Source: a virus. From it: a stretch of 64,000 nt of DNA. The position numbers were made by a program, and so were the translations under genes. The notes beneath the pieces are model-generated. The model worked only from the letters and a program-made list of their open reading frames with translations. It did no database searches and was not told where the DNA came from. The stretch is from the IMG/VR virus record IMGVR_UViG_3300044691_000371, positions 20,827 through 84,826 of that record. One strand, given 5' to 3'. Below are positions 1-50,757 of this stretch, in pieces (within the stretch, counting starts at the first letter, position 1; each line of letters opens with the position of its first letter).

Positions 1-323
1 AATCCTCCACTTCCAGCAAATTTTGAAGTATCAAAAAAAGTAGTTAATGAATATGAAAATTGATGCATCGTTTCAGAATTAACTGGCTTTAAACTGCTAT
101 CTGATATTGAAATAGTAGGGACATTTAAAAAAAGACTATCAACTTGTGATTTTTGATACCAATAAACAAAACCACGGTTACTACCCATGTCTGTTCTAAA
201 ATTGAATGTATCATTTGATCTTTGCAATGAATTTCCAACATTTTGCCATGATGCAATAACATATGCTCCCCATATAATTCCAGGTAAACATAATAGTATT
301 GGCAATAAATATTTCTTTTTCAT
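1..323 (-). CDS. Partial gene (runs off left edge): signal-peptide-bearing hypothetical protein MKKKYLLPILLCLPGIIWGAYVIASWQ...
   Basis: Manual translation: ATG at 323 overlaps the TGA of the upstream gene (ATGA); frame is open to base 1; basic N-terminus followed by a hydrophobic stretch. Confidence 0.7.
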   Translation of the reverse strand, partial: MKKKYLLPILLCLPGIIWGAYVIASWQNVGNSLQRSNDTFNFRTDMGSNRGFVYWYQKSQVDSLFLNVPTISISDSSLKPVNSETMHQFSYSLTTFFDTSKFAGSGG

Positions 324-1258
324 GTTACCTTAATCAAAATATTTTGTGGATCATTTGAAGCAAAACCATAAAGCCTATTTGGACTAAATGTTTGATCGAA
401 TTGATCTGTGATTGAAACTTGATTTGATGAAGCATAAATAACGACTAATCCAATTGGTAATGTTAAAGGTAGATACCAACTGCCATTACTATCTTGTAGA
501 AGATTAGTTTCATTGAAAGTAAATGTAATAGCCCCCCCGCTACCATTATTTGGCTGTGTAAACATAACTCCATTTGATATAATTGTGGTAAATATAATAT
601 CATCTTCGTTAAATTGCGTTACTTGGTCAAATGCGGTGCTATCGAAACCTATTTTAAACCCCATTATTAAACCGTCCTGATCTAAAGCGTCTGCGGCTGT
701 TATTCCGGTTAATGTAAATTGAAACCCGTAGTTATTGAATATCGTAACCATCGCTTGCGTTAACCACGATGTGCCAACTACGTACCCATTATTTGTTGAA
801 GTAAAATTTATTGCTTCGGCTACGCAAACAAAGAATGTTCCGGCTGTTAGTGGATTGCCGTCATAAACTATCGTTCCGTTTATGACTTGATATATTACCC
901 CAATCTTTAGCGTGTCGCCTGGCATAGCTACGCCTTTCCCTAAAGCACCTAATGAAAAGTGTTGTCGTATTCTATCAATAAAATTCAATAAGTCCGTAGA
1001 AAATCCTGATTGATCGTCACCATATGCGTCTGGCTCCCAATTGTATGAACCAAAATCCCATTTCCAATCGCATCTTGTAAGTCCACCTGGGTACTGCGTT
1101 GTATCTGGTGCAGCATCTAATCCTAAAAGTATAAAGTTTCCGTTATTGTCAGGAGTTTTCTTGGGCAAAAAATTAGTCTTTAATATCACTGTCGCGCCTG
1201 TACTACTTAACAAGGCTTGACATTCTTTTAAAACACTGTCTAAGATTTCTCCGATCAT
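320..1258 (-). CDS. Putative virion structural protein (tail-completion / Mu gp37-like N-terminal half)
   Basis: 312 aa ORF downstream of Mu-like morphogenesis genes; TATATTTG -7 element 4 nt before the ATG; function inferred from position only. Confidence 0.45.
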   Translation of the reverse strand: MIGEILDSVLKECQALLSSTGATVILKTNFLPKKTPDNNGNFILLGLDAAPDTTQYPGGLTRCDWKWDFGSYNWEPDAYGDDQSGFSTDLLNFIDRIRQHFSLGALGKGVAMPGDTLKIGVIYQVINGTIVYDGNPLTAGTFFVCVAEAINFTSTNNGYVVGTSWLTQAMVTIFNNYGFQFTLTGITAADALDQDGLIMGFKIGFDSTAFDQVTQFNEDDIIFTTIISNGVMFTQPNNGSGGAITFTFNETNLLQDSNGSWYLPLTLPIGLVVIYASSNQVSITDQFDQTFSPNRLYGFASNDPQNILIKVT

Positions 1259-1733
1259 TTAACAAATATAGTATTCAAAACTATATTTTTATTTATTTAA
1301 AATCGGCAATCTTTTTTAAGATAGTAATTGCCATATCCTTATCGATTTCTACAATAGGGCTTTTAGGATATAATTCAAATGAAATGCTATTGTTACGGAC
1401 TGTGAAATATAATATTTCTTCTTTTGCGTTTAAAGGCTTTTGCTCTTTGTAAATTGTTTTTACAACAACGCCGAATTTATTTTTATATAATTTTGGTATT
1501 TCAATTTCCATTATAACAAAGTTTTTTTAGGCGAATTACTATTTTCAATCAATGAACTTAACTTCCTTAATGCGTCCCATATCTTGCCTTGTTCATATAG
1601 GCTATTTATCCTGTCTCTATTGAATAAATTTATGAAGTCTGGATACTTACCTGTCTTAATTATTTCAGTTAATTCTTGGGCAGATAATGACTGTTTTAAA
1701 TTAAATGAGTTGTGCTGATTCATATTAGTGTTT

Positions 1734-2078
1734 TTAAGGACATAAACTTATTTCGTAAATTTTAAATTCTTTTATATTGCCGTTTTCATCACGATCAATA
1801 AAACCTCCTGGTTGTGCATTTACTATAAGTCCTTCTTTATGTAAAAGGTTTAAATATTTGCTTTCATCAGTTAGCTTATGAAAAATAGGCTTAAACATTA
1901 GTCCTTTGTGACTTAATTTTACTTCTGTTACTATTCCTATTGATATTTCTTTCCAATTATGATTAAGTAATAAAACTGGATTTAAATTAAACTTTTTAAA
2001 GTTAAAAGCTGATGGAGATATTACATCAGAACTATCCCATTTTATTTTAGGCAATTCTATTTTAATCTTTTTTTTCAT
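1734..2078 (-). CDS. Short HK97/Mu-type prohead protease-like protein
   Basis: NPVLLLNHN...IG and YEISLCP motifs typical of prohead proteases; only 114 aa. Confidence 0.6.
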   Translation of the reverse strand: MKKKIKIELPKIKWDSSDVISPSAFNFKKFNLNPVLLLNHNWKEISIGIVTEVKLSHKGLMFKPIFHKLTDESKYLNLLHKEGLIVNAQPGGFIDRDENGNIKEFKIYEISLCP

Positions 2079-2094
2079 AATTCAAAGTTAAATA

Positions 2095-2715
2095 TTATTT
2101 TGAAAATGCCTTCATTGCTTTTTTTGTTTCGAAATCTAATTTACGCTTAATTGCATTTATCATCTTTGGGTTAGCCCCCTGCGATTTAGTTGGTAAATAT
2201 TGACGTTTCGGCATTGACCATGAATGTTCGGCAATTGTATTTTTTTGCGCGTAATTTGCTTTTTTTGCTGTGCTAAACTTCTTATTTTTGTCGAAATGTA
2301 AAACGGCTGTTCGTTCTTTTTGATGGATAGTACCACCTTCATTATGCACTTGGGCGTAAGGCACAATTCCCAAATCAACCCCTATAAAAACATATCCGCT
2401 CGAAACAATAAATTTAATCGAATTAAAAAGGGCTAATGATTGTCTTAAAAGTGGCTTGCTTGCGCTGTAGACTGAACCTTTATAATTACTATTCCCCCCT
2501 TTTCCCCTATTAGCTGTATATGCTTTGTTTGTGGCGTTTTTTCGTTTAGGCCAAGGTGTAACTCCGTTACCTGAATCATATCCCGAGAGTAGGAAATTTT
2601 GCTTTACAATTTTCACACTTTCTACCCCAATAATATCAGGTGTCTTTTTCATTAAAGCATCCATTGCAGCTCTTGATTTCTGGAAGTCACGAATTAGCGC
2701 GTCTAAACTTTGCAT
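2095..2715 (-). CDS. Phage virion morphogenesis protein (Mu gpG / Phage_tail_S-like)
   Basis: PWPKRK, PYAQVHNEGG and MPKRQYL motifs; ATG at 2715 preceded by TATATTTG. Confidence 0.8.
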   Translation of the reverse strand: MQSLDALIRDFQKSRAAMDALMKKTPDIIGVESVKIVKQNFLLSGYDSGNGVTPWPKRKNATNKAYTANRGKGGNSNYKGSVYSASKPLLRQSLALFNSIKFIVSSGYVFIGVDLGIVPYAQVHNEGGTIHQKERTAVLHFDKNKKFSTAKKANYAQKNTIAEHSWSMPKRQYLPTKSQGANPKMINAIKRKLDFETKKAMKAFSK

Positions 2716-2748
2716 TAACAAATATAATTATTTTACTATATTTGAACT

Positions 2749-2816
2749 GTGTGATTATTACTTAGGTTTTTTATTTGAGCGGCTACTATTAGATAAAACT
2801 AAAGTAGCCGTTTTTT
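2749..2816 (+). ncRNA. Candidate trans-acting small RNA (~68 nt)
   Basis: TATATTTG -7 element at 2737-2744, U/G-rich body GTGTGATTATTACTTAGGTTTTTT, 10-bp terminator stem 2778-2787/2803-2812 and T6; opposite strand to all neighbouring genes. Confidence 0.6.
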
Positions 2817-4122
2817 ATTTCTTCAAACTTTTATAATAGTTAAATCCCCTATTTAAGTAATAAGGAAAATTAATCATAGGATGTATCATTTCGGCTGTAG
2901 CATTTTCAATATGTTTAGTCGTTAATTTTTTAGGTTCAATTACCGATACATTATGATCTATGCAATGAATTTTAACTCTATTGTAATCTTCAATTGCTGT
3001 CATTTTCATTATTCCAAAATGACCTTTAAGTAATCCATGCATACTCATACTTTCATTCAATTAAACTTTCTGGTCTATCAATATCAACGTTAAAATTTGA
3101 GTAGTCGTTTCCCTCTGCGTTTGAAATTCTCATTGGCCTTTTTGCTTTCCTCCAAAAGTCGTCACTCCATTCCTGTAAGATAACTTTTTCTTCATCTGTT
3201 ATTAGTTCATCATTGTAGACCTTTAGAAGTATGTGGTTTTGTTGTGGTGTCATTTTTAATCGTTGCTATCAAAGATATATTTTTCTGCTATCTCTAAAAC
3301 AGTTCTTACTTTTTTAAGGTCAAATTGAAATCTTGTGGTAAAACGCTATCATCTTCGCCGGTTATTGTAACATAATTTATCATTTGTGCTATTTAAAAAG
3401 TGAATTAAATTCTTGAATTGTTTTAACTGTTCCATTCATACGCTTAACAATATCACCAGTTAGGCATATTGTGAGTTTATCGGCATCCTTCTTACTTATT
3501 TCAGCGAACATTGCTTCTTTTATAAAGAGATTTACAATGCTATTATTGCCTAAAACTGTTAAATCTGCGTATGCTTTTTGTAAAATCCAACCTCTGAACT
3601 TTGTTCTTATGTCAGATAGGTAAACTGAAAATTCATGATTTTTACCTATTTTAAATTTGAATGTAGGATTTGGTAAATCTTTTTTAGGGTCAAAATCCAT
3701 TACTGTTACTTTCATCTTTTTATTCTTTTTGTATATAAATATCCATTAAACTCTTTCCAATTCTTAAACAAGCTACTTTTGAAAAAGTAGATGTATTTTT
3801 CACTGAAAATTATACGGTATTTATTCATCTCTTAAACAGCTTGCATAACCTCTATTCGAACACATTGCCTCAATAATATCATCCCTCAACCGTGCTTGAT
3901 ATTTTTCGGCTGTTTCGCCCTCACGTTGCTTTAAATCTTCGTTTCTTTCACTTGAAACAACGTGACTATTGAACAATTGCAAGACGTAATTTGCACCAAT
4001 CATGAAGCAATCGTGATCGCTCAATACTTTTCTTTCGTCGTATTGGTGCTTTTCATAAAAATCTCCTATCTGATTTTCAGCATTTAGATAGGCGTTCTTT
4101 AGGAATTTTTGATTAGTTGTCA

Positions 4123-4410
4123 TTACGCGGCGATTTTAGATTTAATAAAAGTCATTTGATTTTTTGTGAACTTATCGCCGAAAAGAAATTGTGCAAGTCC
4201 GTTTATACCGTGTTCTTTGCAAAACTTAATAGTATCTAAAACCCTACGTGTTACGGTAGCGGCTTCGCCCTCTACATGAAAGGATACGAAGTCAGGGTCA
4301 TTATCAATGATGTCATAAAGTGCTTGTGTATCGAAGTTGTTATCTATGATAACGTTTTCAGTATAGTTTTTGTAAGTGATAACTCCGATTTGTGATACTT
4401 GATTTTTCAT
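4123..4410 (-). CDS. Hypothetical protein (first gene after a conserved phage promoter)
   Basis: ATG at 4410 (MKNQVSQ...) lies downstream of promoter 4447-4477; the longer TTG start in the ORF track runs through the promoter. Confidence 0.6.
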   Translation of the reverse strand: MKNQVSQIGVITYKNYTENVIIDNNFDTQALYDIIDNDPDFVSFHVEGEAATVTRRVLDTIKFCKEHGINGLAQFLFGDKFTKNQMTFIKSKIAA

Positions 4411-4446
4411 TTTTTGATACGTTTTAGCTTGTCTTAATTGACATAT

Positions 4447-4477
4447 CAAATATACACATTGTTTTTGTATTTGCAAA
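4447..4477 (-). promoter_or_regulatory. Bacteroidota sigma-A type promoter, copy of the repeated phage promoter AAAGTTTGCAAATACAAAAAC...TAnnTTTG
   Basis: -33 TTTG (4474-4477), 19-nt spacer, -7 TATATTTG (4447-4454). Confidence 0.75.
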
Positions 4478-4495
4478 CTTTATTTCAAAATAATT

Positions 4496-4861
4496 TCACA
4501 GAACAATAACCCCTACTCTGTACTTTGAAATATTTTCGGTTGCAAAGGCATTAGTTACCTCTCCGTTTAATGTGCTGACTACATAGCCGTCTCTAATATA
4601 GTTCCTGTAAACGTCTGTTTGCTTTTTGGGGTCTTTCCAGTACGACCAACACTCTTGAGGATGCATAATAGTATCCGGTATTTTTTCGAAGTCTTTGAGG
4701 TTGTTTCGTACAGCGTGGAAACTTTTTGAGGTAAATTTTACGTTTGTTAGAAGTTTAGCACATTGAAATATTATCGTGCCTTTTATGTCGCTGTGGTATT
4801 GGTGTTGCCAAATATGGTACTCTTCGATGAAGTGGTGAAGTTTGTTTTTATTTACGCTCAT
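4496..4861 (-). CDS. PBECR2-like (phage barnase/EndoU/colicin/RelE-like) nuclease-fold protein
   Basis: IPDTIMHPQECW...YRNYI motif and position behind MuF, where this domain commonly occurs. Confidence 0.55.
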   Translation of the reverse strand: MSVNKNKLHHFIEEYHIWQHQYHSDIKGTIIFQCAKLLTNVKFTSKSFHAVRNNLKDFEKIPDTIMHPQECWSYWKDPKKQTDVYRNYIRDGYVVSTLNGEVTNAFATENISKYRVGVIVL

Positions 4862-5418
4862 GGTTTAATTATGTTTAATTTAGCAAACTCTTTATATAGT
4901 TTTAAAGCTTCTTTATTATATGCCAATGCAGCCTCTTTTTCGGTTTTGAAATATCCTATATGTTTGCCTAAAATTGATGATTCCCATGTAGGATATTCCT
5001 TAGTTATAACAGTTCCATCTTTTAATATCCATTTTGTTTTTTTCTTATTTAAGTGAACTCCTTTATATTCAGATGTTGTGTTTTTATTTGCATTTCTATT
5101 CCGATTATTTTCGCTCTTTGTTGCTGCTCTTAAATTTTCAATTCGGTCATTTAATGGATTTCTATCAATATGATCTACAAACTCTGGCATGTATCCGTGA
5201 TGATAAAGGAAAATCAATCGAGAAGTTAAATATCTTTTCCCATATATACTAACTCTGTATCTTTTAGCATTGTAATAAACACATATACATCCAAGTCTTT
5301 TGCCTATTTTAACATATGGATTTATTTTTTTCTTCCAATATAAATATCCGTCTTTATATTCAGTATATTTAAGTAATACTTGTTGTGTTAATTGAGGTTT
5401 TTCTTTTAAATTTGTCAT
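4858..5418 (-). CDS. HNH homing endonuclease with C-terminal AP2 domain
   Basis: VDHIDRNPLNDRIENLRAAT (HNH_3) and YKGV...IGYFKTEKEAALAYN (AP2). Confidence 0.9.
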   Translation of the reverse strand: MTNLKEKPQLTQQVLLKYTEYKDGYLYWKKKINPYVKIGKRLGCICVYYNAKRYRVSIYGKRYLTSRLIFLYHHGYMPEFVDHIDRNPLNDRIENLRAATKSENNRNRNANKNTTSEYKGVHLNKKKTKWILKDGTVITKEYPTWESSILGKHIGYFKTEKEAALAYNKEALKLYKEFAKLNIIKP

Positions 5419-5483
5419 ACTTTTTAAATGTTTTGCGACATAAAAGTATGAAAATCCGGCGATTATATCAAAGGATTTTTGTT

Positions 5484-6332
5484 TTAATCTATATTAAAAA
5501 TATCTCCATTCGCTTCATTTGCACTCGATAAAGCCTGAAAATAGCTATGCCCTTGACGTGGTAAAATTCCCTGATTTGCACTATTAAACCTGAATTGAGG
5601 GTCTACATGCTCTAATGATACTTTTGCTTCTTCGTTTGTTAAAACAGATTTCCCATTGTCTTCAAGGTACTGATCGTCCACTTGTTCGCTTCCGCAATCG
5701 CAATTAAATCCATTTTTTGGGTGACAATCGTCCCCTTCTGGATCTCCTATTCGATAGATATTACCAACCAATTCAAGGTGTTCGATTCTCGGATTTGCTG
5801 AATTTGTTTCTAAATATATCCAATAAGGGTATAACTCTTTATTTTCACGATATGATATAAATTGTTGACCTGTTATTGCTAATCCTATAGCCGTATCGTA
5901 TTCTATACGAAGCCATGTTTCTTGAAATATATTTACTACTTCTTTACAATCTCTTTTATATTGGCTAAACCCCTTACGAACGCCGTCTTCATTGAACAAC
6001 AATTCTTTCATCATTTTATTTTCAGCAACGCTCTTACTCGCTGAAAATTGGGTTGAGTTCAATAAATAACGCTCATATAATGAGGTATCACGAAATAAGT
6101 CGAAATCTGATTTGATTTTAGTTTCGTCTTTCAGAATATCGAAAAAGGTATTTGCATATTCTTTGAAAGTAGGCAGGTATATCCCTGTGCCTCCATCAAA
6201 TACGAATTTGGCTTCGTCATCTGATTTTTCTGAAAGCCTGTCAATTGTATGATCTATTTTGGCCTTTTGTTTCTTGGTCGGTTTCCTCGGTTTAGAATCA
6301 AGGTTGACGTATTCACTACCTAAAAAAATCAG
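5484..6332 (-). CDS. Phage Mu F-like minor head (head morphogenesis) protein; frame open ~90 codons upstream of the TTG at 6062 with no ATG/GTG/TTG
   Basis: WLRIEYDTA, PR.EHLEL.G and HPKNGFNCDC MuF motifs; manual translation shows the frame continues to the A-run at the end of the portal gene. Confidence 0.8.
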   Translation of the reverse strand: MIFLGSEYVNLDSKPRKPTKKQKAKIDHTIDRLSEKSDDEAKFVFDGGTGIYLPTFKEYANTFFDILKDETKIKSDFDLFRDTSLYERYLLNSTQFSASKSVAENKMMKELLFNEDGVRKGFSQYKRDCKEVVNIFQETWLRIEYDTAIGLAITGQQFISYRENKELYPYWIYLETNSANPRIEHLELVGNIYRIGDPEGDDCHPKNGFNCDCGSEQVDDQYLEDNGKSVLTNEEAKVSLEHVDPQFRFNSANQGILPRQGHSYFQALSSANEANGDIFNID

Positions 6333-7762
6333 TTTTTTTTTAAAGCCATCTGAAAAGTAGCATCCGGCTTTACCAATTTATCCTGCGTTGGTTGTGGCAT
6401 TGGCTCAAAGAAATCGGGCATCATTCCGTTCTGCTCAAAAAACCCTGGAGTTAACCTGTAACCGTTAGCGTTAAGGGTCGCCCCCATTACTTGAATGTCA
6501 GCTATGGTTAACTGTTTTGGCCTGTAAGCAAACCACCATTTATCTGGATTAGGAATGTTTTTATAGAACTTTGCTATTTTTATTTTAAAGCCTTTTATGT
6601 TGTTTAAAGTCGCTAATATGTAAGGCATTAATTCGGCAACCCTATCATCCAGTGTACGTTCTTCGACCTCTCCTAAAGCTCTATTACCACCTTTACCGCT
6701 TGATTGAGTTAATGAACGACCGAAAACCATTTCCTGAATTTCGCCCTTTTGTTCTTGATTAAACTCTTGATAAATTTTATGTAAACTTCCTGTCGCGCCT
6801 GTCTTTTCAAATTCTAATTCGATTGACTTTTGCATTTGCCCATCATTATCTAAAGTATATGGGTAAACTAATCCCTCTTTTGGATTAAGGTTTGAAGCTA
6901 ATGCAACTGCATCATTTTTGTAATTATTCTTTGGTTGACCGTTTGCATCTAAACTTCCGTCATCTTGTGGGTAACCGATTGTAAGGAATGGGAACGCTGT
7001 TCTCCGGCCTGCTGCAATCCAGTTGTTATTATTTTCGTTCATTTCCACATAGCTATAGGCTATAGCTTGCATCCACCCTAAAAAGTCTTCGTAATTATCA
7101 GATGGTTGAACGAATAAAAGATTGTCGTTTTCTTCAAACAATGCCCCGTCATAAAAACTGAATGTATTGGCTTTTAACATCCTATTTATCGGGTCAATCT
7201 GCTGCATTGGGTATTTGTAGCATTCTTCATTCACTGGGTCAAAGTTCAAACCGCTGAATCCCCAGAAGTACGAATAAAGAATTTCGCGCCTCATTTTTAT
7301 TTGCCACTGCTTGCTGCAAAGTTCTTCTGAAAGGTCTGGTATTTCTTCTCCGTTTTCATCAACAATGTAGAATGGTACCCTGTCCATGGCTGCACCAAGC
7401 TTTAGAAACAACGATCTTACAAATGGTGACTTCTCATATACCCAACTTGTTAAAGTCGCGTATAATTGAGTATAACCCATTTTAACGGCTTGGTCAGATG
7501 CTTCTCTCACGCGGGTTGTATCCCAAGCCACATAATATTGACTTGGGTAGACCCATGACCCTACATTTTGACCGCTTTGTTTTGGAATAAAGAAAGGGTT
7601 TACTATTGGCGAACCGCTTGCTGTTCGTGTTCCAGGCTGTACAGTACCAAAGCCACCCCCACCGGGTGCTTTACCTGTTACACCAACGCCTGTAGTATTT
7701 CCAAATGGCCCGCTGAATGGCCCCTGATTTGCTAATTTTGATGGTCTTCCCCTCTTTGCCAT
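6329..7762 (-). CDS. Portal protein (DUF935 / Mu gp29 family)
   Basis: 477 aa; EILYSYFWGFS, VFGRSLT and RALGEVEE motifs; between gp36 and MuF. Confidence 0.8.
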   Translation of the reverse strand: MAKRGRPSKLANQGPFSGPFGNTTGVGVTGKAPGGGGFGTVQPGTRTASGSPIVNPFFIPKQSGQNVGSWVYPSQYYVAWDTTRVREASDQAVKMGYTQLYATLTSWVYEKSPFVRSLFLKLGAAMDRVPFYIVDENGEEIPDLSEELCSKQWQIKMRREILYSYFWGFSGLNFDPVNEECYKYPMQQIDPINRMLKANTFSFYDGALFEENDNLLFVQPSDNYEDFLGWMQAIAYSYVEMNENNNNWIAAGRRTAFPFLTIGYPQDDGSLDANGQPKNNYKNDAVALASNLNPKEGLVYPYTLDNDGQMQKSIELEFEKTGATGSLHKIYQEFNQEQKGEIQEMVFGRSLTQSSGKGGNRALGEVEERTLDDRVAELMPYILATLNNIKGFKIKIAKFYKNIPNPDKWWFAYRPKQLTIADIQVMGATLNANGYRLTPGFFEQNGMMPDFFEPMPQPTQDKLVKPDATFQMALKKN

Positions 7763-8112
7763 TATGAATTATCCGCCTCGCTTTGCTCTTTGTAATCTTT
7801 TATTAATTCAATTAAAGCATCATTATGGAATATTATTTTAACCCCATCTTTTGTTTCAATTTGAAAATTTGAACCAACTTTTGAAGTCGTTATATCTTCT
7901 TTTCTTATGATGATTATTAAGTCCATTAGTAAATATTATCTCTACGATCTTCCCTTAATTCAATACCACAAAAATAATCACAACAGTCTTCAATCCAATA
8001 AAATGTATTTTTACCTGTAATTATATAAACTGGTATAAATAACGCTACTGATATTAAACATACTGGAATAAAACCTAAAGCTGCTAAAACTCTTAATATT
8101 CGTATTTTCATT

Positions 8113-8553
8113 TTATCCTATCGTTCTAAAATTCATTGGTACTGTAAAAGCACTCGATTCAACTTTGCAGTTTGCCTCGTATAATGGCAGATTGAAAGTC
8201 CCGTTTTGGGTTCTCATTATAATATCATCTGCCCAAATGTAGTTGTCTTTCGTAACCTCACCTATCCCGGCCATATTGCCTAAAATGTCCCTTATTGCCA
8301 GTATTGCGGTTAATTTTACAACTAATTGTTGACGTGGGCCAGAAATCATATTGAACTCTCTTTGCACATCATATTTAGTATAAAAATAGCCTATCATTTC
8401 TGAATAGGCATTATCCGCGCCTTGTTGTATCTTTTGGTTTGATACTTCCCACTGCTTAATTAGTGTTTGATAACTGGCATATTGTGCAAGGTCATACCCC
8501 TGCAAGTATCCCAAATTAAGTGCATCGAATTGAGCGTTAGTTAAAGTTGCCAT
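8113..8553 (-). CDS. Mu gp36 / DUF1320-like head-tail adaptor
   Basis: AYSEMIGY...KYDV..EF pattern, 146 aa, between TerL and portal. Confidence 0.7.
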   Translation of the reverse strand: MATLTNAQFDALNLGYLQGYDLAQYASYQTLIKQWEVSNQKIQQGADNAYSEMIGYFYTKYDVQREFNMISGPRQQLVVKLTAILAIRDILGNMAGIGEVTKDNYIWADDIIMRTQNGTFNLPLYEANCKVESSAFTVPMNFRTIG

Positions 8554-8882
8554 TAGTTCGCTGAAATTACTTTTGAAAATATCTTAAAAATGCCTTTAAT
8601 GTTTCCATCGTACTCAATCCTATAATTGTTAAGTGCAATTCCTTTTATCCTTATCGGTTGATTTGATGGGGTTAATTCTATCATCAATTTGCAATTATAT
8701 TCGATTTATAACAAAAAACTTTTTTATTGAAACAGTAGTTGAAGTCAACAAATGCATGAAACCATGTAAAATTAAATTCATTGATGTTCATACACTTTTC
8801 CGCTCTCAATTCGATCATTTCAATAATACTTTTTTATTGCGCAATAAAAATAGGTAATATTAATTTAATTTTTCATTTAAAT

Positions 8883-8910
8883 AAAAAAGCCTCAATTATT
8901 AGAGGCTTTT
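8883..8910. terminator. Bidirectional intrinsic terminator
   Basis: AAAAAAGCCTC-aattatta-GAGGCTTTT inverted repeat with A/T tails. Confidence 0.75.
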
Positions 8911-8934
8911 AATTTATTAAAATTCTGTTCGGTG

Positions 8935-9555
8935 TTATTTTATTTCTTTTGCTTCTTCAACCGCTAATTTAACAATTTCACGGCTTTCAAATTCATTAAT
9001 ACCCATTAACATTTCATATATAGCAATTTTTATTTTGACATTATATCCTTTCGCTATCTCTAAAAATAATAATAAATGAACAAATGTGCTTTTTTGTCCT
9101 AAAGTATTTGAAATAACTTCACCGTATTTTTTCTTTAACTCATCAATAAAACATAAATTTTCACTTGTGTTTAAAGCTATAGGTATCGATGTTTTAAAAT
9201 TTGAATTGACTTCATTCAAAAGTTTATTTATTGCATTTAACTCTATAAAATAATTTGATTTTATAACTTCAAATGTTTTTCCTAATATTTTAAATTTATA
9301 TGTCAAATTGTTTATTCCTATTGAATAATCAGCTATTAATTTCAAATCATTTTCAGTTAATATAAACCATTCGCCTGCAATATGAGATTTAAAAAAGCAA
9401 TTATGAAGTATAGCTTCGCAATCCTTATCAATAATTAATAAAATTTTACAATCACCTTTAATTTGATCTATTTGTAAAAGTCTTTTATATGGATTTTTTG
9501 AACGCCCAATTTTAATTAATCCAGTTCTGTTGTTTTTAATTATGTATGTTTTCAT
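8935..9555 (-). CDS. T5orf172/MUG113 GIY-YIG-like domain protein with KilA-N-like C-terminus
   Basis: YIIKN...IKIGRSKNPYKRL...EAILH...GEWF; C-terminal TFVHLLLFLEIA. Confidence 0.75.
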   Translation of the reverse strand: MKTYIIKNNRTGLIKIGRSKNPYKRLLQIDQIKGDCKILLIIDKDCEAILHNCFFKSHIAGEWFILTENDLKLIADYSIGINNLTYKFKILGKTFEVIKSNYFIELNAINKLLNEVNSNFKTSIPIALNTSENLCFIDELKKKYGEVISNTLGQKSTFVHLLLFLEIAKGYNVKIKIAIYEMLMGINEFESREIVKLAVEEAKEIK

Positions 9556-9572
9556 TTTACTAAGTTTATTTA

Positions 9573-12014
9573 CTATCCAAGTTTTGGTTTTACTCTTTGG
9601 GTTTTAGTTGTGCCTCCTGCTTGCGGTAATCCACGTCTGCGTTGTAGAAATTGCGTATATTCATCTTTCAATGCTGTTGTGATAAAGTAGCGGCTACAGT
9701 TATGTACTAAAATTCCATTTGCAAAAAATTCGTGTTCATCTTCAATTTCCAAATCGTAAACGTTTTTTACATTCTTTTGAGCATGTTTTTGTTGGGGCGT
9801 ATTTATACACTGTAAATTCATTGTTGCAAATTGCGCATATTCTTTGTGTGTTTTCAAGTCCCAATTTCCGCCTGTATGCTGATTTGCAATTGTTAGAGCA
9901 AAAACGTTGTTCGATTGTTTTTTTTGTAAATTCCTTATTGCATACTTCGCAATTATATTGTCCATATGTAAGATGTCCAAACCCGATATTTTTTGCATGT
10001 TGTTTACACCTTTCCCTCTCTGCTTCACTTCGTTCTCGTTTAGCTGCTGCTGGAATTGCTTTTTCGAGAAGATTTTTAAGCATTTTTGCTTTTTGTTCAT
10101 CAGTCCATTCTTTACTATGGTCTGACATGTGCTGGCTTTTGGTTTTAAGCTCAAAATTGCTTGTTTCGTTATTTTCAGGATTGTGATCAATGTGGTGAAC
10201 AACGTACCCTTTAGGTATTTCCCCGACTTCGCATTCGTATTTATAAACATGTAATCTTGTTTTTCTCCAATTTCCTTTACTGATTTTAACCCATCCTGAA
10301 TAATATGGTTGGTCTCTTTTAGTTCCTGTGTACTTAATAAATCTAAATCCGTTATAGGTGATAATTTCTTTTCGCATACTAAATTATTTTCATCTAAAAT
10401 ACAAAAAGTACCGCAAACAATCAAATATATTTCTATAAAATCTTTTTCCTTAGTGTAAAATTTATGTTCTGGTGTGCATGTTACTTTAACATCACCTATT
10501 TGATATTCTTTAACCTGTCTATATCCATTATTCCAAACATTTAAAACTTTTTTATATCCATTTCTTGTCAAAACATTTTCACCTATTTTAATTTCATCAA
10601 TTCTTTTATTTCCATTATCGGTCATTATAAAAGTTTCCCCGACAAAACAAGATAACATATGTCCGTACTTCTCATAAGTTATACCTGTTTGTTTATCGGT
10701 TACTTTTTTAATAATGATTCCACCGTCTACATCTTCCGGCACCATTAAATAATCTTCAATCGATTTGTAACAAGTTTTATTTATAAAAATCTTCCATCCT
10801 AAATATTGCGTTTCTAAAATTTCGTTTATAAATGCCCCGCTTTGCGTTATACTTGGTGCTGACTTTCCAACTCTATCAACAACTTTAAATCCTGCATTTT
10901 CTAAAACTCCTATGAATTTATCAAAAAATGATCTTCCATTATCATCTGTTGTTGATCTTGCGTTTGCAGATGGATCGCCAAATACATTTATAATATCGTT
11001 ATAATCTTCACGATCTAAATATTTAACTAATTCCATTGCTGCTTTTGCTGCTGTATTGTTTGGTGCAATACATGGTAATTCACCAATTTGTAATAATGCT
11101 TTCCCAACTTTATCAATCATCCAAAGTTGAACTGATACGTATGGGCTAACGTTATTGTCACAACTTACACAATAAGTAAATCCACGCTGTTTTAGCCCCG
11201 GTATTAAGTTAAAATCTATTGTGTGAAGGTTTGTATCAAAACATTTATAAAACGGATTTCCAGGCTTTCTAAACCCCCAATTCCCAAGCGTAAACACATT
11301 GTAGTAATATGCGTTATTTTTTGATGTTCGATAACTCTCATATAATGCAATACGTTCGTCACTACAGTAAGGATTATCTTTATACGTGCCATGGGTTGAT
11401 CTTACCTTAAATTCTATTTTCCCTTTTGGTGTATCAATTTCGCGTACCCATTTAAAGTTTTTTTCTTCTGTATGTGAAAACCAATCCTGCCATAGCCAAA
11501 AATCAGTATAAGTAACGTCACATTCAGGATTAAAACTAAAATATGTTTTTACTTTTCCTTCGTTTGAACGCAAAGAGGTTAATATTACTATAAAATCATC
11601 CGCTGTTATCTGATTTGCTTCTTCTAACCATGCCCATGATGGATTCGCAAATGATTTTATTTTCTGAACGTCATCTAATCCCCTGCCATAAAACGCCCCG
11701 CCATTGATACATTTAATTTCTAATGGTGAAGTTGTGAATTTAAAAAATTGTTGCAATCCCCAATTTTCAACTACAATTTTAATCATCCCAACCATTGATT
11801 CAGAAACTGTATTATAGGTTTTCCTTATTAATAGCCCGCGAAATTTAGGATTAGACATACATTCGATTATGCCCATTTGTGCTATCTGTCTCGTTTTGCC
11901 ATTATCCCTGCCTCCCCAGAGGAAGTCAATATCAAAAACTTCTGGGTCATCGATTAAATGGTGGTAACATGGAAGGAACTTATCGCGACTGACTGTTATG
12001 TTTATTTCTGACAT
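9573..12014 (-). CDS. terL: Terminase large subunit (PBSX-type) interrupted by an intein; ~496 aa after splicing
   Basis: Walker A GGRDNGKT, LLIRKT, RGLDD..KIKS, Walker B WAWLEEA, SFNP, and nuclease motifs (FGDPSA; GHMLS|CSRY). Confidence 0.93.
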   Translation of the reverse strand: MSEINITVSRDKFLPCYHHLIDDPEVFDIDFLWGGRDNGKTRQIAQMGIIECMSNPKFRGLLIRKTYNTVSESMVGMIKIVVENWGLQQFFKFTTSPLEIKCINGGAFYGRGLDDVQKIKSFANPSWAWLEEANQITADDFIVILTSLRSNEGKVKTYFSFNPECDVTYTDFWLWQDWFSHTEEKNFKWVREIDTPKGKIEFKVRSTHGTYKDNPYCSDERIALYESYRTSKNNAYYYNVFTLGNWGFRKPGNPFYKCFDTNLHTIDFNLIPGLKQRGFTYCVSCDNNVSPYVSVQLWMIDKVGKALLQIGELPCIAPNNTAAKAAMELVKYLDREDYNDIINVFGDPSANARSTTDDNGRSFFDKFIGVLENAGFKVVDRVGKSAPSITQSGAFINEILETQYLGWKIFINKTCYKSIEDYLMVPEDVDGGIIIKKVTDKQTGITYEKYGHMLSCFVGETFIMTDNGNKRIDEIKIGENVLTRNGYKKVLNVWNNGYRQVKEYQIGDVKVTCTPEHKFYTKEKDFIEIYLIVCGTFCILDENNLVCEKKLSPITDLDLLSTQELKETNHIIQDGLKSVKEIGEKQDYMFINTNAKSGKYLKGTLFTTLITILKITKQAILSLKPKASTCQTIVKNGLMNKKQKCLKIFSKKQFQQQLNENEVKQRGKGVNNMQKISGLDILHMDNIIAKYAIRNLQKKQSNNVFALTIANQHTGGNWDLKTHKEYAQFATMNLQCINTPQQKHAQKNVKNVYDLEIEDEHEFFANGILVHNCSRYFITTALKDEYTQFLQRRRGLPQAGGTTKTQRVKPKLG
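9699..10649 (-). mobile_element. Intein (317 aa, TerL residues 456-772)
   Basis: Block A CFVGETFIMT, block B TCTPEHKFYT, block F VYDLEIEDEHEFFANG, block G ILVHN followed by Cys+1. Confidence 0.93.
9742..10377 (-). CDS. HNH homing endonuclease with C-terminal zinc ribbons, encoded in the -1 frame entirely inside the intein coding sequence
   Basis: RLHVYKYE..VGEIPKGYVVHHIDHNPENNETSNFEL...H (HNH_3); CxxC...FCSNNC and CxxC...TCSKEC; own ATG with A-rich upstream sequence and A at -3. Confidence 0.88.
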   Translation of the reverse strand: MRKEIITYNGFRFIKYTGTKRDQPYYSGWVKISKGNWRKTRLHVYKYECEVGEIPKGYVVHHIDHNPENNETSNFELKTKSQHMSDHSKEWTDEQKAKMLKNLLEKAIPAAAKRERSEAERERCKQHAKNIGFGHLTYGQYNCEVCNKEFTKKTIEQRFCSNNCKSAYRRKLGLENTQRICAICNNEFTVYKYAPTKTCSKECKKRLRFGN

Positions 12015-12030
12015 AGAAAATCAAAAATAC

Positions 12031-15795: not shown

Positions 15796-16155
15796 GATTG
15801 TGATTTAATATTGGGAAACATTGTTGATAATACATGTAATTGGTGCTTTTCACATATCCAAACTAATGTATTACCAAATTGAAATATTTTGCCACCCTTT
15901 CTACATCCTTCATAATCACACATATGTCCTATTGCATAAATTGGTTCTCCGTCTTCATTTTTTACGGGTTCTTTCATTTCATTTACTGACATTCTATTTC
16001 ATCCATTAAAACTTTAACCATTTCACAAGCCCTTTTATGAATATATTCGAGTTCGTTCTTTTCGGCAAAAAACATAAGCCGTACAAACCCCATAAACCGT
16101 TGCTTTAATTCGTGTCGGTCTTTGCTGATATAAATTACATCCGGTGGTTCCATGT

Positions 16156-16512: not shown

Positions 16513-16887
16513 TTAATTATTTTGAATTGTATGTGATGAAAATCCGTCTCCTGCGCTTTCTGCATCTAATGCCTTTTCTAACTTTTCTGTAAAGTCAATT
16601 AGTGGCATTAAAACATATCCGGTCGTTTCTGTTATGCACTGCAATAAGTTCAAACTATCAGTTGTTTTCTTTTGCCATGCTTTTTTGTCGCCGTTATAAT
16701 CAGCTAATTTTGATTTAAACCTAATTTCATCTCCTGTTTGAATTATGCACGAATACGATGGATTAAGCTTATTTAAAAACTCACTATATCCCGGCGTATG
16801 AAGCACAACCATTGCACCTATGTCATGCTTTGCAAGGATAGCTTTTATTTCTTCCATTGCGGTTTTTAATTTTGGGCTGTATTGCAT
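16513..16887 (-). CDS. Conserved phage hypothetical protein
   Basis: 124 aa ORF with ATG, tightly packed in the operon. Confidence 0.6.
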   Translation of the reverse strand: MQYSPKLKTAMEEIKAILAKHDIGAMVVLHTPGYSEFLNKLNPSYSCIIQTGDEIRFKSKLADYNGDKKAWQKKTTDSLNLLQCITETTGYVLMPLIDFTEKLEKALDAESAGDGFSSHTIQNN

Positions 16888-16896
16888 TTTGTGTGA

Positions 16897-17400
16897 TTAA
16901 ATATGTTCATTAATAAATTTATCAATATCAGGACTTAAAAGCAAGTGAACATTTCGCGTTATTCTTTCGTCATCCCAATCCCACCACGCTATCTCTAAAA
17001 GGCTATTTATCTGCTCTGTGTTGAATCTTTTTCTTTTTACAACATTTGCCCCGACTACAATAGAATAAGGCTCTACATCCTTTGAAATAAAGCTCATTGC
17101 CCCTATTACCGCCCCGTGTCCTATGTTTACCCCGGTTGCTATGTAACTTCTCATTCCGATTGTTACATCTGACCCAATTATTATATCACCTCTCATTTGA
17201 TTATACCCTGCATCAATATGTGAAGCACTTGGCCAAAGGTTTTTAAACGGGTATGTAGTAACTAAATAAGGGTCATGTGATTGACCGCCATCAAAAACGT
17301 TCGCTTCGGCTATGCTTGTAAAATTTCCAATGATAACGTTATTTCCGTTACCGTATTGGTGAACCTCTCCATAGGTGTATTTGCCTTTAGTTACTGCCAT
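16897..17400 (-). CDS. Hexapeptide-repeat O-acetyltransferase (CatB/Vat-like)
   Basis: IGNFTSIA, TTYPF, GDIIIGSDVTIG, GVNIGHGAVIGA, KDVEPYSIVVG and LLEIAWWDW. Confidence 0.92.
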   Translation of the reverse strand: MAVTKGKYTYGEVHQYGNGNNVIIGNFTSIAEANVFDGGQSHDPYLVTTYPFKNLWPSASHIDAGYNQMRGDIIIGSDVTIGMRSYIATGVNIGHGAVIGAMSFISKDVEPYSIVVGANVVKRKRFNTEQINSLLEIAWWDWDDERITRNVHLLLSPDIDKFINEHI

Positions 17401-18082: not shown

Positions 18083-18641
18083 TTTATTTTATTTTTTAGT
18101 GTGTGATTATTATCCTACTTCAAATCCTTTATCCCATGCTTTTGTTAGGGTCAAATCGTTCATTTTATGTGTTTCAATAGGGCTTAAAACTATATCACCA
18201 TCTCCCCGTTCAATGTTAACTGAATTGATTGATAGGTAATCATCTGTTGATTCTGTATAAGCCCACATAAAGACTTCGCTTTCCTTGTTTGGCACTTGAT
18301 TAAGCAACTCTATAAGAGTTTTAACGGTCATTACTCTAAATATTTAATGTTTGTGTATGTAAATTCATAATATGAATCATTATCGCCTTCGCCTTGATAC
18401 CATTCACCTGAAATATCTACTAATATCCAGCTCCCATTATTGACAGCAATAAATTGATCGTAGTTATTATCGAATAAATCTTTTTGAAGTTCTTCAATTA
18501 AGTTTGTGTTTAAAACGCCTTCATAAATATGATGAAATCCATTTAACAAAGGCTGAATCATATCATCTTCGTCTTTTTCAATCCATATTTCAGCTTGAAA
18601 CTTACAATCGAATTTATTCATTTAGCTTCTTATTTGAATTT

Positions 18642-35328: not shown

Positions 35329-35505
35329 AAGCATCCGTTCTGATCGCCGTCCCGGATGCTCAACCTAAACCTATCACAATGACCGAATAGAACTTCGATC
35401 TACTGCTAAAAGCCAAATCCTTTTGAGAGTTTGGCTTGCGTAGACGGGTTTACGCATTTTTTCCGGTATTAGCAGACCGTGAACTATCTCACGGAACACG
35501 GTGGG
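35329..35505 (-). ncRNA. GC-rich multi-hairpin non-coding RNA region
   Basis: Stems CCGTG/CACGG; CTGCTAA/TTAGCAG enclosing TGCGTA/TACGCA and AGCCAAA/TTTGGCT; AGCATCCG/CGGATGCT. Confidence 0.5.
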
Positions 35506-39451: not shown

Positions 39452-39502
39452 AGTGTGATTAATTTGGTCAATGTAACAATATATAAAGCCGACAAAACCG
39501 GG

Positions 39503-39673: not shown

Positions 39674-39824
39674 TGCTTCAAATATATGTTACATTGTCCG
39701 AATAAACAATATTTTATTTCATAAAATTTCGATTATTCTTTTTAATTCTTTTCACAACTGGTTTCGAGCAGTCAATTTTTATTATTTGGAATGTTGTTTG
39801 GTTGCAGTAACTCATTTTTTTTGT

Positions 39825-40469: not shown

Positions 40470-41394
40470 ATTATTGAGTTACTTTTTGCTTGCTGTAAAG
40501 TTTAGTTAATAGTTCGTCTGCCCATTGAAGTGCTAAATCAGTTCCTTCGCTGCTGTTGTGTAGATTACCTGTAGGTGCGTTCTGAATTAATCCTTGCATT
40601 GCTAACCCGGCTAAATAAAGCCTGTCTTTGTGCCTTTGATCTTCTTTTTCAAAAAGGTTTGTTTCTTTCAAAGGCATTTTAAACCCATTAGGCGAACGAT
40701 CTTGTTTGACAGCCTTCAGGTATTCAAGTATTTCGTTCTGCTGTTCTAAAGCCTTAGTGAAGCCATCTAAAGGTAAGTTTGGTTGCACTGTCTTTTTGCT
40801 TCGCTCTAAGATGTAATTCAACACTGTCAATATTAAGTTTTTATCGACCTGGAATGAAAGCCAATGCCACTTTTTATCTGTTTCAAGGTCAATTATTTTT
40901 AGATCGATTAATGCTTTTTTGATATACTTATTGATCTGAAATTCTTTTATCAGTTCATCGATTGTTAGTTCGCATCCGTCCGAATTTGTAATAAGTGACT
41001 TTAAAAAGTCCTCGTATTTGTCAAGTACTTTCAGCAAAGGTTTTTTCTCGCGTGTCATGTGTGTGATTATTTTAAATTATTTTATTCGCTTTAATGGCCT
41101 TATAGTTTCCTTTATTTGACCTGCTTTTTTCAATATCAAATAATCACTGCAAACTATCATTCCATTTATCTTGTAGATATTATTTGATCTGCAAATTAGG
41201 CAAACTTCTTTTAGTTGAGTAAATAAATGATTGGTCATCGATTCCATTATTCAGCCTCTCTTTTACAATAATGACATATTTGATATTCAAAATCTATTTC
41301 ATCGTATTCTCTACCACAATGAGGGCAAAATTGGTATCCTTCTTCGTCAAAGTCATCAAAGGATGGGTCTTCTGGTTGATTATTTTTCATAATT

Positions 41395-44118: not shown

Positions 44119-44562
44119 TTAAATAACTTTTTTTAGAAATTTTAATTGAAGTTCTTTTAGATTATATTTTGGATTGGTAGTATAGACGATTGTGTTTTTA
44201 TTGTCCATTAAATTAACTGCAATCTTTTCTTTTAATCCTAAATCCCTATTTTTAAAAACTCGCTTTTTCGGGTCACTTGCGTTTTTATTATTATCAGCCT
44301 TTCTTTCTTTTTTGGCTGATTTAACTTTTTCAGGCTTTATTTTCACTTCTTTTTTGGGTGTAGTAACTATAACAAATGTTTCTTTGGTTTTTACTTTTGC
44401 TTTAGCCTTTTTAGCCCTTGATAGTTCAACCCTTGTTTTAGCGTTTATTTTATCTTGAGGGTTTAAATGGTATCGCACAGTTAATCGTGAACACCCTAAT
44501 GCGTTGGCTATCTGATTGTAGTTTAAGCCCTGATTATGTAAGGCTAATATTTGTTCGCCCAT
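44119..44562 (-). CDS. HTH-domain basic protein
   Basis: GLNYNQIANALGCSRLTVRYHL helix-turn-helix. Confidence 0.65.
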   Translation of the reverse strand: MGEQILALHNQGLNYNQIANALGCSRLTVRYHLNPQDKINAKTRVELSRAKKAKAKVKTKETFVIVTTPKKEVKIKPEKVKSAKKERKADNNKNASDPKKRVFKNRDLGLKEKIAVNLMDNKNTIVYTTNPKYNLKELQLKFLKKVI

Positions 44563-44564
44563 GC

Positions 44565-45848
44565 TTACTTTGTTTCGTCAATAAGTTCGTAACGTAAATC
44601 TCCACAATCCCAGTCAACGCGTTCTATTAAGAGCTGAATTGGCTCTCCAAAACGTTTAGTTCCTTCATCTATAGCCCACTTTTCTACTTCTGCCAAAGAG
44701 TTACGATCTAACATTGAGCAATCGAAGTACAAAGTCTTAACCTCTCCCAAATTAATTGCTGCCAATTTTAAAGCCGCTATGTAAATGCTCGAAGATGATA
44801 ACTGCTCTTTTGTGATAGGCAGCCCGTTAAATAAAATCTGATCGTCTCCAAACTCAAATCCTTCCGGCAAATTCGATTTTTTAATCATTTCAACTTTTTC
44901 AAGTTCAATCGCCTTTACTTTTTTGTCTGCCTCTTTTGCTTTTATGTCAAGCTGTAAAAGGTCTTCTTTAGCCTTGATTGCCTCGTTGTTTTTCTTGATC
45001 TTTTCGTTTTTGTCTTTCGCGTCCTGTAGCTTTTTATTTAGCAATTCGGCAACCTCTTTATCCTTTGGCTTGTTTGCGGCTGTTGATAGCCATTCTTCGC
45101 CCTGTAGAACGCGTTTCTCTAATGTTTTAAGGCTTTCCTTAGCTGTTTTTAAAAGTGTCTCTAATCGCTTTATTTCGGTCTCCTGGGCGGTGACTTGTTT
45201 TTTAAGTTCGGTTACCCCTTTATCAGATGTTTCGTACTTGTGGTTATGTAATTCGATACCCGAAATTTCCATTTGGATAGGTTCAATGTCAATTTCTTTT
45301 ACTGGCAATGATGGATCAATAGGTTTCGGATTAGCCTTTGCATCTTTTAGTTTGCTATTGGCTAATGTCCGGTCTTCGTAAACTATTTTATAACGGTCGT
45401 TAATTTCCGAAAAGTCAAGGCCGGTAACATCTTCCAGTATCTTTTTTTGCTTTTTTGGTTGAGCGTGTAGGAACTCGTCAATGTCAAAACTTGGAGGGAA
45501 AAATCGTCTTGCTATTTCATCAGTAAGCGACATTTTTAATTCTTTGCCTCCCTGGTCTTTGGTTACAAAGATTAATCGTTCGCCTTTCGCCGTTTTGTTA
45601 TTGAACTCCCAAATTAGCTGTTCGCCAGTTGTTAGAGTTAATTCCTGCATTCCTTCTGCTGTTCCTGTTTTCAGGATAACATCAGGCTTAACATTGTTTA
45701 ATCTGTCTATAAGGCTTCGTAAAAAACTTGATTTGCCGGAGTTGTTCGCACCGGTGATTATGCAAGTTTGGCCTGTGGTTCCAAAGTCTGCTTCGAACTC
45801 CGATAAAGCCTTCAAATTAACAACTCGGTTTTTCTGGATTTTTGACAT
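44565..45848 (-). CDS. SMC/Rad50-like AAA ATPase with coiled coil
   Basis: Walker A GANNSGKSS, long coiled coil, LSSS signature and LYFD Walker B-like motif. Confidence 0.8.
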   Translation of the reverse strand: MSKIQKNRVVNLKALSEFEADFGTTGQTCIITGANNSGKSSFLRSLIDRLNNVKPDVILKTGTAEGMQELTLTTGEQLIWEFNNKTAKGERLIFVTKDQGGKELKMSLTDEIARRFFPPSFDIDEFLHAQPKKQKKILEDVTGLDFSEINDRYKIVYEDRTLANSKLKDAKANPKPIDPSLPVKEIDIEPIQMEISGIELHNHKYETSDKGVTELKKQVTAQETEIKRLETLLKTAKESLKTLEKRVLQGEEWLSTAANKPKDKEVAELLNKKLQDAKDKNEKIKKNNEAIKAKEDLLQLDIKAKEADKKVKAIELEKVEMIKKSNLPEGFEFGDDQILFNGLPITKEQLSSSSIYIAALKLAAINLGEVKTLYFDCSMLDRNSLAEVEKWAIDEGTKRFGEPIQLLIERVDWDCGDLRYELIDETK

Positions 45849-45879
45849 TGTGTTTTATTGTTTTAAATAATGTGTGATT

Positions 45880-50462: not shown

Positions 50463-50757
50463 AAACTTTTTTTCTAAGATAACAAACTGGTATGCTTTCA
50501 ATAAAGCCTGATTTTTCATATCGGTGCGCTGGTGTGATTGCTTCTGCCTTTAAAAGCGTTTCGTACATTCCTTCGTTTTCGCTCCAATCTTTAATTGCAA
50601 TTTCTTCTTTTAAAAGTCCTGGCAAATTAACTGATGCTTTGGCAACTAAATTATCATATATCGGCAGGTCGGTTCCTATCAATTTTAATGCTACGTTCCC
50701 ATCTTGATACATTCCAGTTTCAAGCGAACAATTCCATTGTTTAAATTTTACTTCCAT
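50449..50757 (-). CDS. DUF4313-like hypothetical protein
   Basis: Y.DG.VAL.L...ASVNL...IKDWSEN...SGF pattern. Confidence 0.5.
   Translation of the reverse strand: MEVKFKQWNCSLETGMYQDGNVALKLIGTDLPIYDNLVAKASVNLPGLLKEEIAIKDWSENEGMYETLLKAEAITPAHRYEKSGFIESIPVCYLRKKVYEQI

Follow-up and report, generated by a model that had tools for sequence, protein, structure and literature searches.

Upstream of a neck/tail-completion gene of an uncultured phage, a short + strand unit carries the reverse complement of an octamer that recurs directly before many of the phage's own start codons. This arrangement raises the question whether the unit encodes a small RNA (sRNA) that acts in trans on the marked starts, as an earlier note on this DNA had proposed, or whether the octamer is read in some other way. 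The analysed window consisted of 64,000 nt, corresponding to bases 20827-84826 of an 84,826-bp IMG/VR virus record; coordinates given below are those of the window unless indicated otherwise. The record is approximately 90% complete, has a G+C content of 33.6%, and carries nearly all of its genes on the - strand. Marker genes encode an 813-aa large terminase, a Ro60-like RNA-binding protein, a primase/helicase, a methyltransferase, and a neck/tail-completion protein.

Megablast and tblastn searches of cultured phages yielded no relative closer than 33%. With the neck protein as query, the best match was at most 33% in IMG/VR and at most 40% in JGI metagenomes, and no close relative was found among GTDB genomes. 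Two homologues of the neck protein, P0002 (Logan, encoded on 17 kb) and P0003 (NCBI, 11.9 kb), matched at 89 and 76%, respectively. Comparisons were made with an 18.8-kb contig (L044), which shows 78% identity in the terminase, 88% in the Ro60-like protein, and synteny from 17923 to 4496, and with a complete 94-kb relative (G002) that has 43 ORFs in common with the phage under study. The terminase of L044 (9102-10568) is without residues ~458-771 of the protein encoded in the window (9573-12014, - strand). A prophage region of Pedobacter nyackensis encodes a 49%-identical homologue of ORF 44565-45848, which suggests that the phage probably infects a member of the Sphingobacteriia or Flavobacteriia from soil or fresh water.

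The octamer AATCACAC, hereafter referred to as the tag, is a real, sense-strand-specific, and start-associated element. Twelve exact copies were present in the window, ten of them on the - strand, while 100 dinucleotide shuffles contained 2.03 copies on average (sd 1.29, maximum 5) and in no case 12 or more. The whole 84.8-kb record holds ten sense and three antisense copies. Nine of the ten sense copies are located at most 40 nt upstream of a called ATG (spacings of 1, 2, 3, 11, 12, 18, 20, 23, and 33 nt), in eligible positions that represent 6.3% of the genome, where less than one exact copy was expected. As a control, 280 8-mers of equal composition gave a mean of 0.17 upstream matches and a maximum of 2, the overlapping ATCACACA excepted. 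One of the three + strand copies is found just outside the window, inside a + strand ORF of 70 aa (genome 18964-19176, window -1862) and 11 nt beyond its ATG, in a small cluster of opposite-strand genes. Since this copy stands in the sense orientation of its own ORF, the tag follows gene orientation and not DNA strand.

Variants with one mismatch were not enriched (4 of 48 upstream of starts, versus approximately three expected), and the need for an exact 8-mer therefore fits a base-pairing seed better than a degenerate protein site. Two variants nevertheless looked genuine, namely AAACACAC-a-ATG at 52118 and AATCACAA-tc-ATG at 15798. The extended consensus is WWT-AATCACAC-A, with no conservation in the flanks beyond it, and conservation ends at +8 (A in six of nine copies), which matches U2748 as the last possible pairing base. 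Rfam covariance models gave no match at gathering score anywhere in the window, and a literature search with the motif string returned unrelated primers only. Compared with a late-promoter box of the T4 TATAAATA type, the tag showed no constant distance to a transcription start site (TSS) with a leader: three sites have only 1-3 nt between tag and ATG, and the near-tag at 52118 stands downstream of a -7 box.

Two classes of sense promoters provide the transcriptional context of the tagged genes. Class I promoters, of which there are approximately eleven, combine an extended, conserved -33 region (AAAGTTTGCAAATAC...) with a TAnnTTTG box 19 nt further on, and are located 11-40 nt before the ATG. 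Early and middle operons were observed to be headed by approximately eleven near-identical strong promoters of the form AAAGTTTGCAAATACAAAAAC-N-TAnnTTTG (- strand; 52447, 52147, 47429, 35772, 24313, 18649, and 4454). Class II is represented by a bare -7 box (TAnnTTTG, no -33 element) that precedes the start codons of structural genes by 3-7 nt. Such boxes occur on the - strand at 2713-2726 (neck), 2079-2090, 1259-1270, 12015-12029 (terminase), and 39674-39686. The complete relative G002 has eight of them, seven with a 3-nt gap and with the neck and terminase genes included (89938, 76235, 75094, 72813, 55519, 41863, and 40163, often directly after a terminator). In Flavobacterium johnsoniae, the -7 box TAHHTTTG is positioned at -12 to -5 and transcription starts 4-5 nt after its G (PMC6847099). 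Applied to gaps of 3-7 nt, this rule suggests that class II promoters probably give leaderless or near-leaderless mRNAs, which are probably late transcripts from activator-dependent promoters.

The tagged genes are dispersed over the window, and all of their tags are on the - strand. Three copies nearly abut the start codon: 16891-16898 is 3 nt before ATG 16887 of a 124-aa ORF with no assigned function, 39453-39460 is 1 nt before ATG 39451 of a gene for a T5orf172/MUG113-domain protein, and 41061-41068 is 2 nt before ATG 41058 of a 195-aa ORF. At greater distances are the copies at 18101-18108 (18 nt before ATG 18082; 231 aa, no assigned function), 45872-45879 (23 nt before ATG 45848 of a 427-aa AAA/SbcC-like ATPase), 46572-46579 (20 nt before ATG 46551; 223 aa), 50532-50539 (12 nt before ATG 50519; 226 aa), and 51031-51038 (11 nt before ATG 51019; 86 aa). 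The start of the 226-aa ORF is uncertain because of an in-frame ATG 19 codons downstream. The copy at 13473, approximately 58 nt inside rsr, is not start-associated. Functions of the tagged genes are mostly unassigned, the T5orf172 protein, the AAA/SbcC-like ATPase, and a weak nucleotidyltransferase-like ORF being among them. Just downstream of a tagged gene, ORF 44119-44562 (- strand, 147 aa) showed a weak Sigma70_r4_2-like helix-turn-helix (HTH) match with an E-value of 0.0025, below the cut-off.

Eight of the nine start-associated tags are inside operons begun by class I or similar host-type -7 boxes, at approximately two per operon; the approximately nine tagged cistrons fall in five operons with host-type promoters. 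The near-tag at 52118-52125 (- strand, 1 nt before its ATG) follows a class I -7 box at a distance of 14 nt and is therefore within a 5' UTR, which argues for action at the mRNA level. The second near-tag, at 15798-15805, stands 2 nt before an ATG on the - strand. Both had been claimed as near matches in the earlier note and were recovered as such. The positions that it named for exact copies likewise all proved correct (2749, 13473, 16891, 18101, 39453, 41061, 45872, 46572, and 51031), the motif was enriched when compared with shuffled sequence, and the match lengths in the note (9/12/9/11/8/8/9) were reproduced, given an RNA start at 2749. The site list was incomplete in that the copy at 50532-50539 had been overlooked.

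Comparison with the two relatives indicated a tag confined to the lineage of this phage. No sense-strand copy of AATCACAC is present in L044, which at two orthologous spacers has "...TTTAA-AAATG" and "...GATTAATAAAAC-ATG" in place of the tag; the tag at 16891 is absent from the orthologous spacer, and the orthologue of the gene at 18082 is untagged. In G002, none of five copies is upstream of a start codon. Its counterparts with placeable starts have plain A-rich leaders, as in the orthologue of the AAA/SbcC-like ATPase gene, and its neck gene is preceded by a terminator and a -7 box. The G002 leader of the gene at 41058, for which homology begins at residue 3, is untagged, and the start orthologous to 18082 could not be placed in this genome. 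The + strand unit was found in neither relative. Analogous private 8-mers were detected neither in these two genomes nor in L051/L053 or a more distant 51-kb phage. By sequence comparison, the tags appear to have been gained since the split from the relative with the 78%-identical terminase.

The tag is also scarce in a potential host background. In a 6.1-Mb Pedobacter genome, AATCACAC-N0-35-ATG occurred 84 times, as compared with 45 times for a reversed control, which corresponds to approximately one per 87 kb and is ten-fold rarer than in the phage; an equal frequency before starts, which the earlier note had named as grounds for giving up its proposal, was therefore not observed in this member of the Bacteroidota. 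A separate observation concerns the P. nyackensis chromosome, in which six copies of AATCACAC are clustered within 45 kb (L101-L103, G004:C15:809-853 kb). Several of these precede the starts of secreted-protein-like genes, twice as AATCACACTAAAT, in a region with no phage homology.

The remaining start-associated copy, at 2749-2756, is the one that coincides with the + strand unit (2737-2820). On the - strand it reads AATCACAC and stands 33 nt before the ATG of the neck gene (2095-2715, - strand; 206 aa; phrog_26, E-value 6.7e-9), the homologues of which keep M1. The start region of this gene (2713-2726) consists of a class II box TATATTTG at 2726-2719, a 3-nt gap, and the ATG at 2715-2713, and its mRNA is probably leaderless; the same layout is found at the neck gene of G002. 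Relative to the neck promoter the tag spans -41 to -34; a leaderless neck mRNA would therefore lack it, and only read-through transcripts would contain it.

On the + strand, the unit opens with a second TATATTTG box at 2737-2744, which fits the F. johnsoniae consensus TAHHTTTG (PMC6847099) and is separated by AACT from the anti-tag GTGTGATT at 2749-2756. No TTTG is found 19 nt upstream of this box as a -33 element, the nearest being 25 nt away. The 4-5-nt rule places the TSS at 2749/2750 and the 3-nt gap typical of the phage group places it at 2748, and the predicted 5' end of the RNA therefore falls on the anti-tag. A U-rich 5' body follows (2749-2776), of which nt 1-28 were unpaired in RNAfold predictions, the seed being unpaired in both the minimum-free-energy and the centroid fold. 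The unit is closed by a predicted terminator (2777-2820) with a 12-bp stem, a 1-nt bulge, and a 6-nt loop, followed by TTTTTTATTT. Its hairpin (2777-2813; core arms 2780-2787/2803-2810) has a folding energy of -18.3 kcal/mol and a z-score of -3.1, and was missed by a simple terminator scan because of the bulge in the stem. The other terminators of the phage have their T-runs on the - strand, whereas 2777-2820 is oriented for the + strand only, the stem being followed by CTCAAATAAAAAAC on the - strand. The stop codon (2815-2817) of the 77-aa - strand ORF upstream overlaps with this terminator tail.

Other sense-strand occurrences of GTGTGATT are in coding DNA or opposite a + strand ORF. Only the copy at 2749 lies in non-coding DNA between a promoter and a terminator, and 2737-2820 is therefore the only candidate in the genome for a dedicated anti-tag RNA. 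The pattern TATATTTG-N4-GTGTGATT occurred at 37 loci in IMG/VR; blastn and tblastn showed no relationship for any of them, and all are therefore chance matches. No match to the hairpin pattern was found in the same database. No RNA run was listed for window 1-10000, and of four DNA runs examined as contigs, the three not from the source gave no readable coverage of 2700-2820. A possible look-alike at 35329-35378 was rejected, as its local alignment score of 19 did not differ significantly from a shuffle mean of 17.9.

An 11-nt direct repeat, GTTTTTTATTT, of which the 84.8-kb genome contains four copies, flanks the hairpin on the + strand (2766-2776 and 2810-2820). The second copy of the repeat takes in the stop codon of the upstream ORF. 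The segment 2766-2820, made up of this repeat around a 33-nt hairpin, has the appearance of a 44-nt insert that duplicated its target; the stem occurs only once in the genome and was not found in IMG/VR. If the 44-nt insert is taken away, the 2749 tag would stand 14 nt after a stop codon, as elsewhere. The + orientation of the terminator could stem from such a hairpin insertion, because its T-run is within the direct repeat and the A-rich 3' end of the upstream ORF.

How readily such a unit arises by chance was estimated from the frequency of its parts. Genome-wide, the + strand contains 70 TAnnTTTG and 6 TATATTTG sequences, and sense intergenic DNA has 12 antisense boxes in 7.7 kb. When the local 22-33-nt segment was shuffled, a + strand TAHHTTTG appeared in 1.5-2.3% and TATATTTG in 0.3-0.5% of trials. 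A + strand box within 50 nt was present at one of the nine other tag sites, without a terminator. As spacers are A-rich, hairpins in sense spacers tend to resemble opposite-strand terminators. For the joint occurrence of a box and an antisense terminator at any one of ten sites, the rough estimate is 1-3%, which is low but post hoc.

The reading considered most probable, at approximately 0.4 and hence tentatively, is that the unit encodes a ~70-nt sRNA that masks the tagged initiation regions in trans. In this mechanism, a host sigma-A-type -7 box would start + strand transcription at 2748/2749. The predicted RNA would begin with the anti-tag GUGUGAUU(AUU) and continue with ~28 unpaired, U-rich nucleotides and an intrinsic terminator. 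Its 5' seed would pair with tags that are all within approximately 35 nt of a start codon, inside or beside the 30S landing zone, and this pairing would block initiation or trigger decay of the tagged cistrons. The unit is back-to-back with the -33-less neck promoter, with 10 bp between the two -7 boxes. It would probably fire with or against late transcription, and accessory genes of the early and middle phases would thereby be switched off late. A base-pairing reader is favoured by the exact 8-mer, by its rapid, lineage-specific gain, and by the end of tag conservation at the RNA 5' end. The more specific proposal of a phage-private tag/anti-tag translation switch, in which the onset of structural-gene expression would silence approximately nine early/middle cistrons by means of a recently installed tag, is slightly more speculative again.

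Several results did not single out this sRNA. The strong promoters of the phage all have a -33 element at 19 nt, which the + strand box lacks. This box is also the right arm (2737-2744) of an inverted repeat, CAAATATA-N10-TATATTTG, of which the left arm (2719-2726) is the class II box of the neck gene itself. In - strand RNA, the repeat folds as a 10-bp AU hairpin 3 nt before the neck AUG; possible roles for it are those of an operator, an mRNA structure, or a pair of mutually exclusive, back-to-back promoters. Complementarity between seed and tags is automatic, because the seed is the reverse complement of another tag copy, and any antisense transcript at 2749 would match the regulon, since this copy is itself in a gene-upstream spacer. 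In a test for a hub, the 2749 copy showed a mean contiguous identity of 9.8 nt with the other copies, versus 10.0 nt for those at 41068 and 18108. The latter two match each other over 13 nt, and the 18101-18108 copy is identical to the 2749 copy over 12-13 nt. RNAduplex was used to pair nt 2749-2778 with all 130 initiation regions. Tagged starts ranked 1, 2, 5, 9, 14, and 17, untagged starts (which reached -17.6 kcal/mol) and G002 starts attained the same energies, and energies of -12 kcal/mol or lower were found for 37 of the 130 starts of the phage under study and for 38 of 163 G002 starts. Pairing between U-rich and A-rich sequence dominates these duplexes, which are therefore not discriminating. 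The ranking against initiation regions suggested in the earlier note thus failed to set the tagged starts apart. Of its sRNA interpretation, the tag, the fit to the promoter rule, and the predicted elements of the + strand unit (-7 box at 2737-2744, 28-nt unpaired stretch, and 12-bp hairpin with T6 tail) stood up to analysis, whereas hub status and duplex energies did not.

The main rival explanation, considered somewhat less likely, is that the tag is a cis element for a different reader that tunes translation or processing of the tagged cistrons. This reader might be a host RNA, an endoribonuclease, or an RNA-binding protein of phage or host that escaped recognition; the 2749 copy would then be no more than the tag of the neck-gene spacer, and the appearance of the + strand fortuitous or irrelevant. 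It would account for a 2749 copy that sits in a gene-upstream spacer like the rest and is not a hub, for duplex energies that do not favour the tagged starts, and for the near-tag at 52118, which in its 5' UTR would work at the mRNA level without the 2749 unit; the start-associated tags of cluster K mycobacteriophages are likewise without a known reader (PMC3203893). However, profile searches for RRM_1, RegA, S21, and Sigma70_r2 found none of these in the phage and only the weak HTH match, an exact 8-mer with no tolerated mismatches is unusual for protein sites, and a different reader accounts for neither the + oriented terminator nor the -7 box, the joint chance of which was roughly put at 1-3% over all sites.

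Alternatively, the + strand RNA may be real and act in cis only, in the manner of OOP RNA, on read-through - strand transcripts that cross from the 77-aa ORF into the neck gene, or its promoter may interfere with that of the neck gene, the match to the tag being incidental. This reading, which is held to be improbable, draws on the structure of the locus. The RNA would pair without mismatch along the entire 2749-2820 spacer, with the stop codon of the ORF upstream included. As the opposite-strand -7 boxes are 10 bp apart, the footprints of RNA polymerase must overlap. The unremarkable duplex energies of the trans targets are also compatible with action in cis, but it would leave unexplained why this lineage alone acquired the identical 8-mer at no fewer than eight further starts.

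A neutral origin, by which the copies are remnants of a leader copied together with gene cassettes or of microhomology at mosaic joints, appears a little less probable still. Exact copies without degenerate variants suggest recent copying, and the relatives are untagged. Furthermore, contigs from two freshwater metagenomes match ORF 16513-16887, which is missing from L044, and diverge exactly at its ATG (16887/16888), where the phage under study has the tag; by sequence comparison, this boundary is a mosaic joint at the edge of the gene. Against neutrality, the proteins downstream of the tags are unrelated by annotation, their flanks have nothing in common outside 11-13 nt, and a tag was gained before an orthologous gene that L044 keeps untagged. 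Moreover, the placement of nine of ten copies next to starts in the right orientation is hard to explain without selection.

The least probable interpretation, that the tag is a DNA-level signal such as an internal middle/late promoter or an activator site, agrees with its strand-specific, intergenic occurrence, with the position of the 2749 tag at the place of a -33 element or class II activator site, and with structural-gene promoters that have no -33 boxes and may need a factor, but is contradicted by ATG distances of 1-35 nt (1-3 nt at three sites, two of which have a start supported by the onset of similarity), by the lack of a -7 box after the tag at the other eight sites, by upstream conservation that ends at 3 nt, and by profile searches that found no sigma factor.

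Trans-acting masking of initiation regions by the candidate sRNA would have features in common with several known systems. To our knowledge, Bacteroidota make no use of Shine-Dalgarno pairing. Phage T4 RegA is a protein repressor with degenerate, AU-rich sites, and the proposed sRNA resembles it as one phage factor that acts on the initiation regions of many phage mRNAs; no homologue of RegA (PF01818) was found in the phage. The OOP RNA of phage lambda and the Sar RNA of P22 are cis-antisense phage RNAs that act on one overlapping transcript. The candidate likewise is a phage RNA of ~70 nt with its own promoter and terminator that runs against the main direction and overlaps a gene end, but differs from them in that its interest lies in possible trans action on dispersed tags. 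In enterobacteria, a G/U-rich single-stranded region of GcvB reportedly pairs with C/A-rich sequences at or upstream of many ribosome-binding sites, and the G/U seed of the candidate faces C/A-rich leaders in the same way. GcvB is Hfq-dependent and host-encoded and has varied targets, whereas here the tag is an exact 8-mer and the RNA a candidate only.

GibS of Bacteroides thetaiotaomicron represses initiation regions through a single-stranded 5' seed in a species of Bacteroidota that lacks Hfq (PMC7366714). The candidate RNA shares the design of an unstructured 5' seed and a Bacteroidota setting without Hfq or ProQ. However, GibS is chromosomal and conserved in its genus, and has an extended seed of 30-50 nt and two validated initiation-region targets (PMC7366714), whereas the candidate is phage-encoded, is approximately 70 nt in length, has a seed of 8-12 nt at its extreme 5' end that would address approximately nine phage cistrons, and shows no sequence similarity to GibS.

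The closest parallel to the tag itself is provided by the start-associated sequences (SAS) of cluster K mycobacteriophages, for which Pope et al. (2011, PMC3203893) left open whether they are read by RNA or by protein. The tag is likewise a short, asymmetric repeat that occurs in one orientation beside start codons, mostly those of non-structural genes, and is rare in the host. SAS are 13 bp long, contain a Shine-Dalgarno core, stand 3-7 bp from the start, and are conserved across the cluster (PMC3203893), whereas the tag has 8-12 nt, is C/A-rich with no Shine-Dalgarno sequence (no AGGAG), has spacings of 1-35 nt, and is absent from L044 and G002.

If the proposed sRNA exists, regulation by a short private tag on many starts, with a single phage RNA as its reader, would be simple and open to rewiring, and would offer a testable model for the start-associated sequences of mycobacteriophages. 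Even without a real RNA, the tag is statistically well supported as a cis element and marks a set of co-regulated genes in this uncultured phage.
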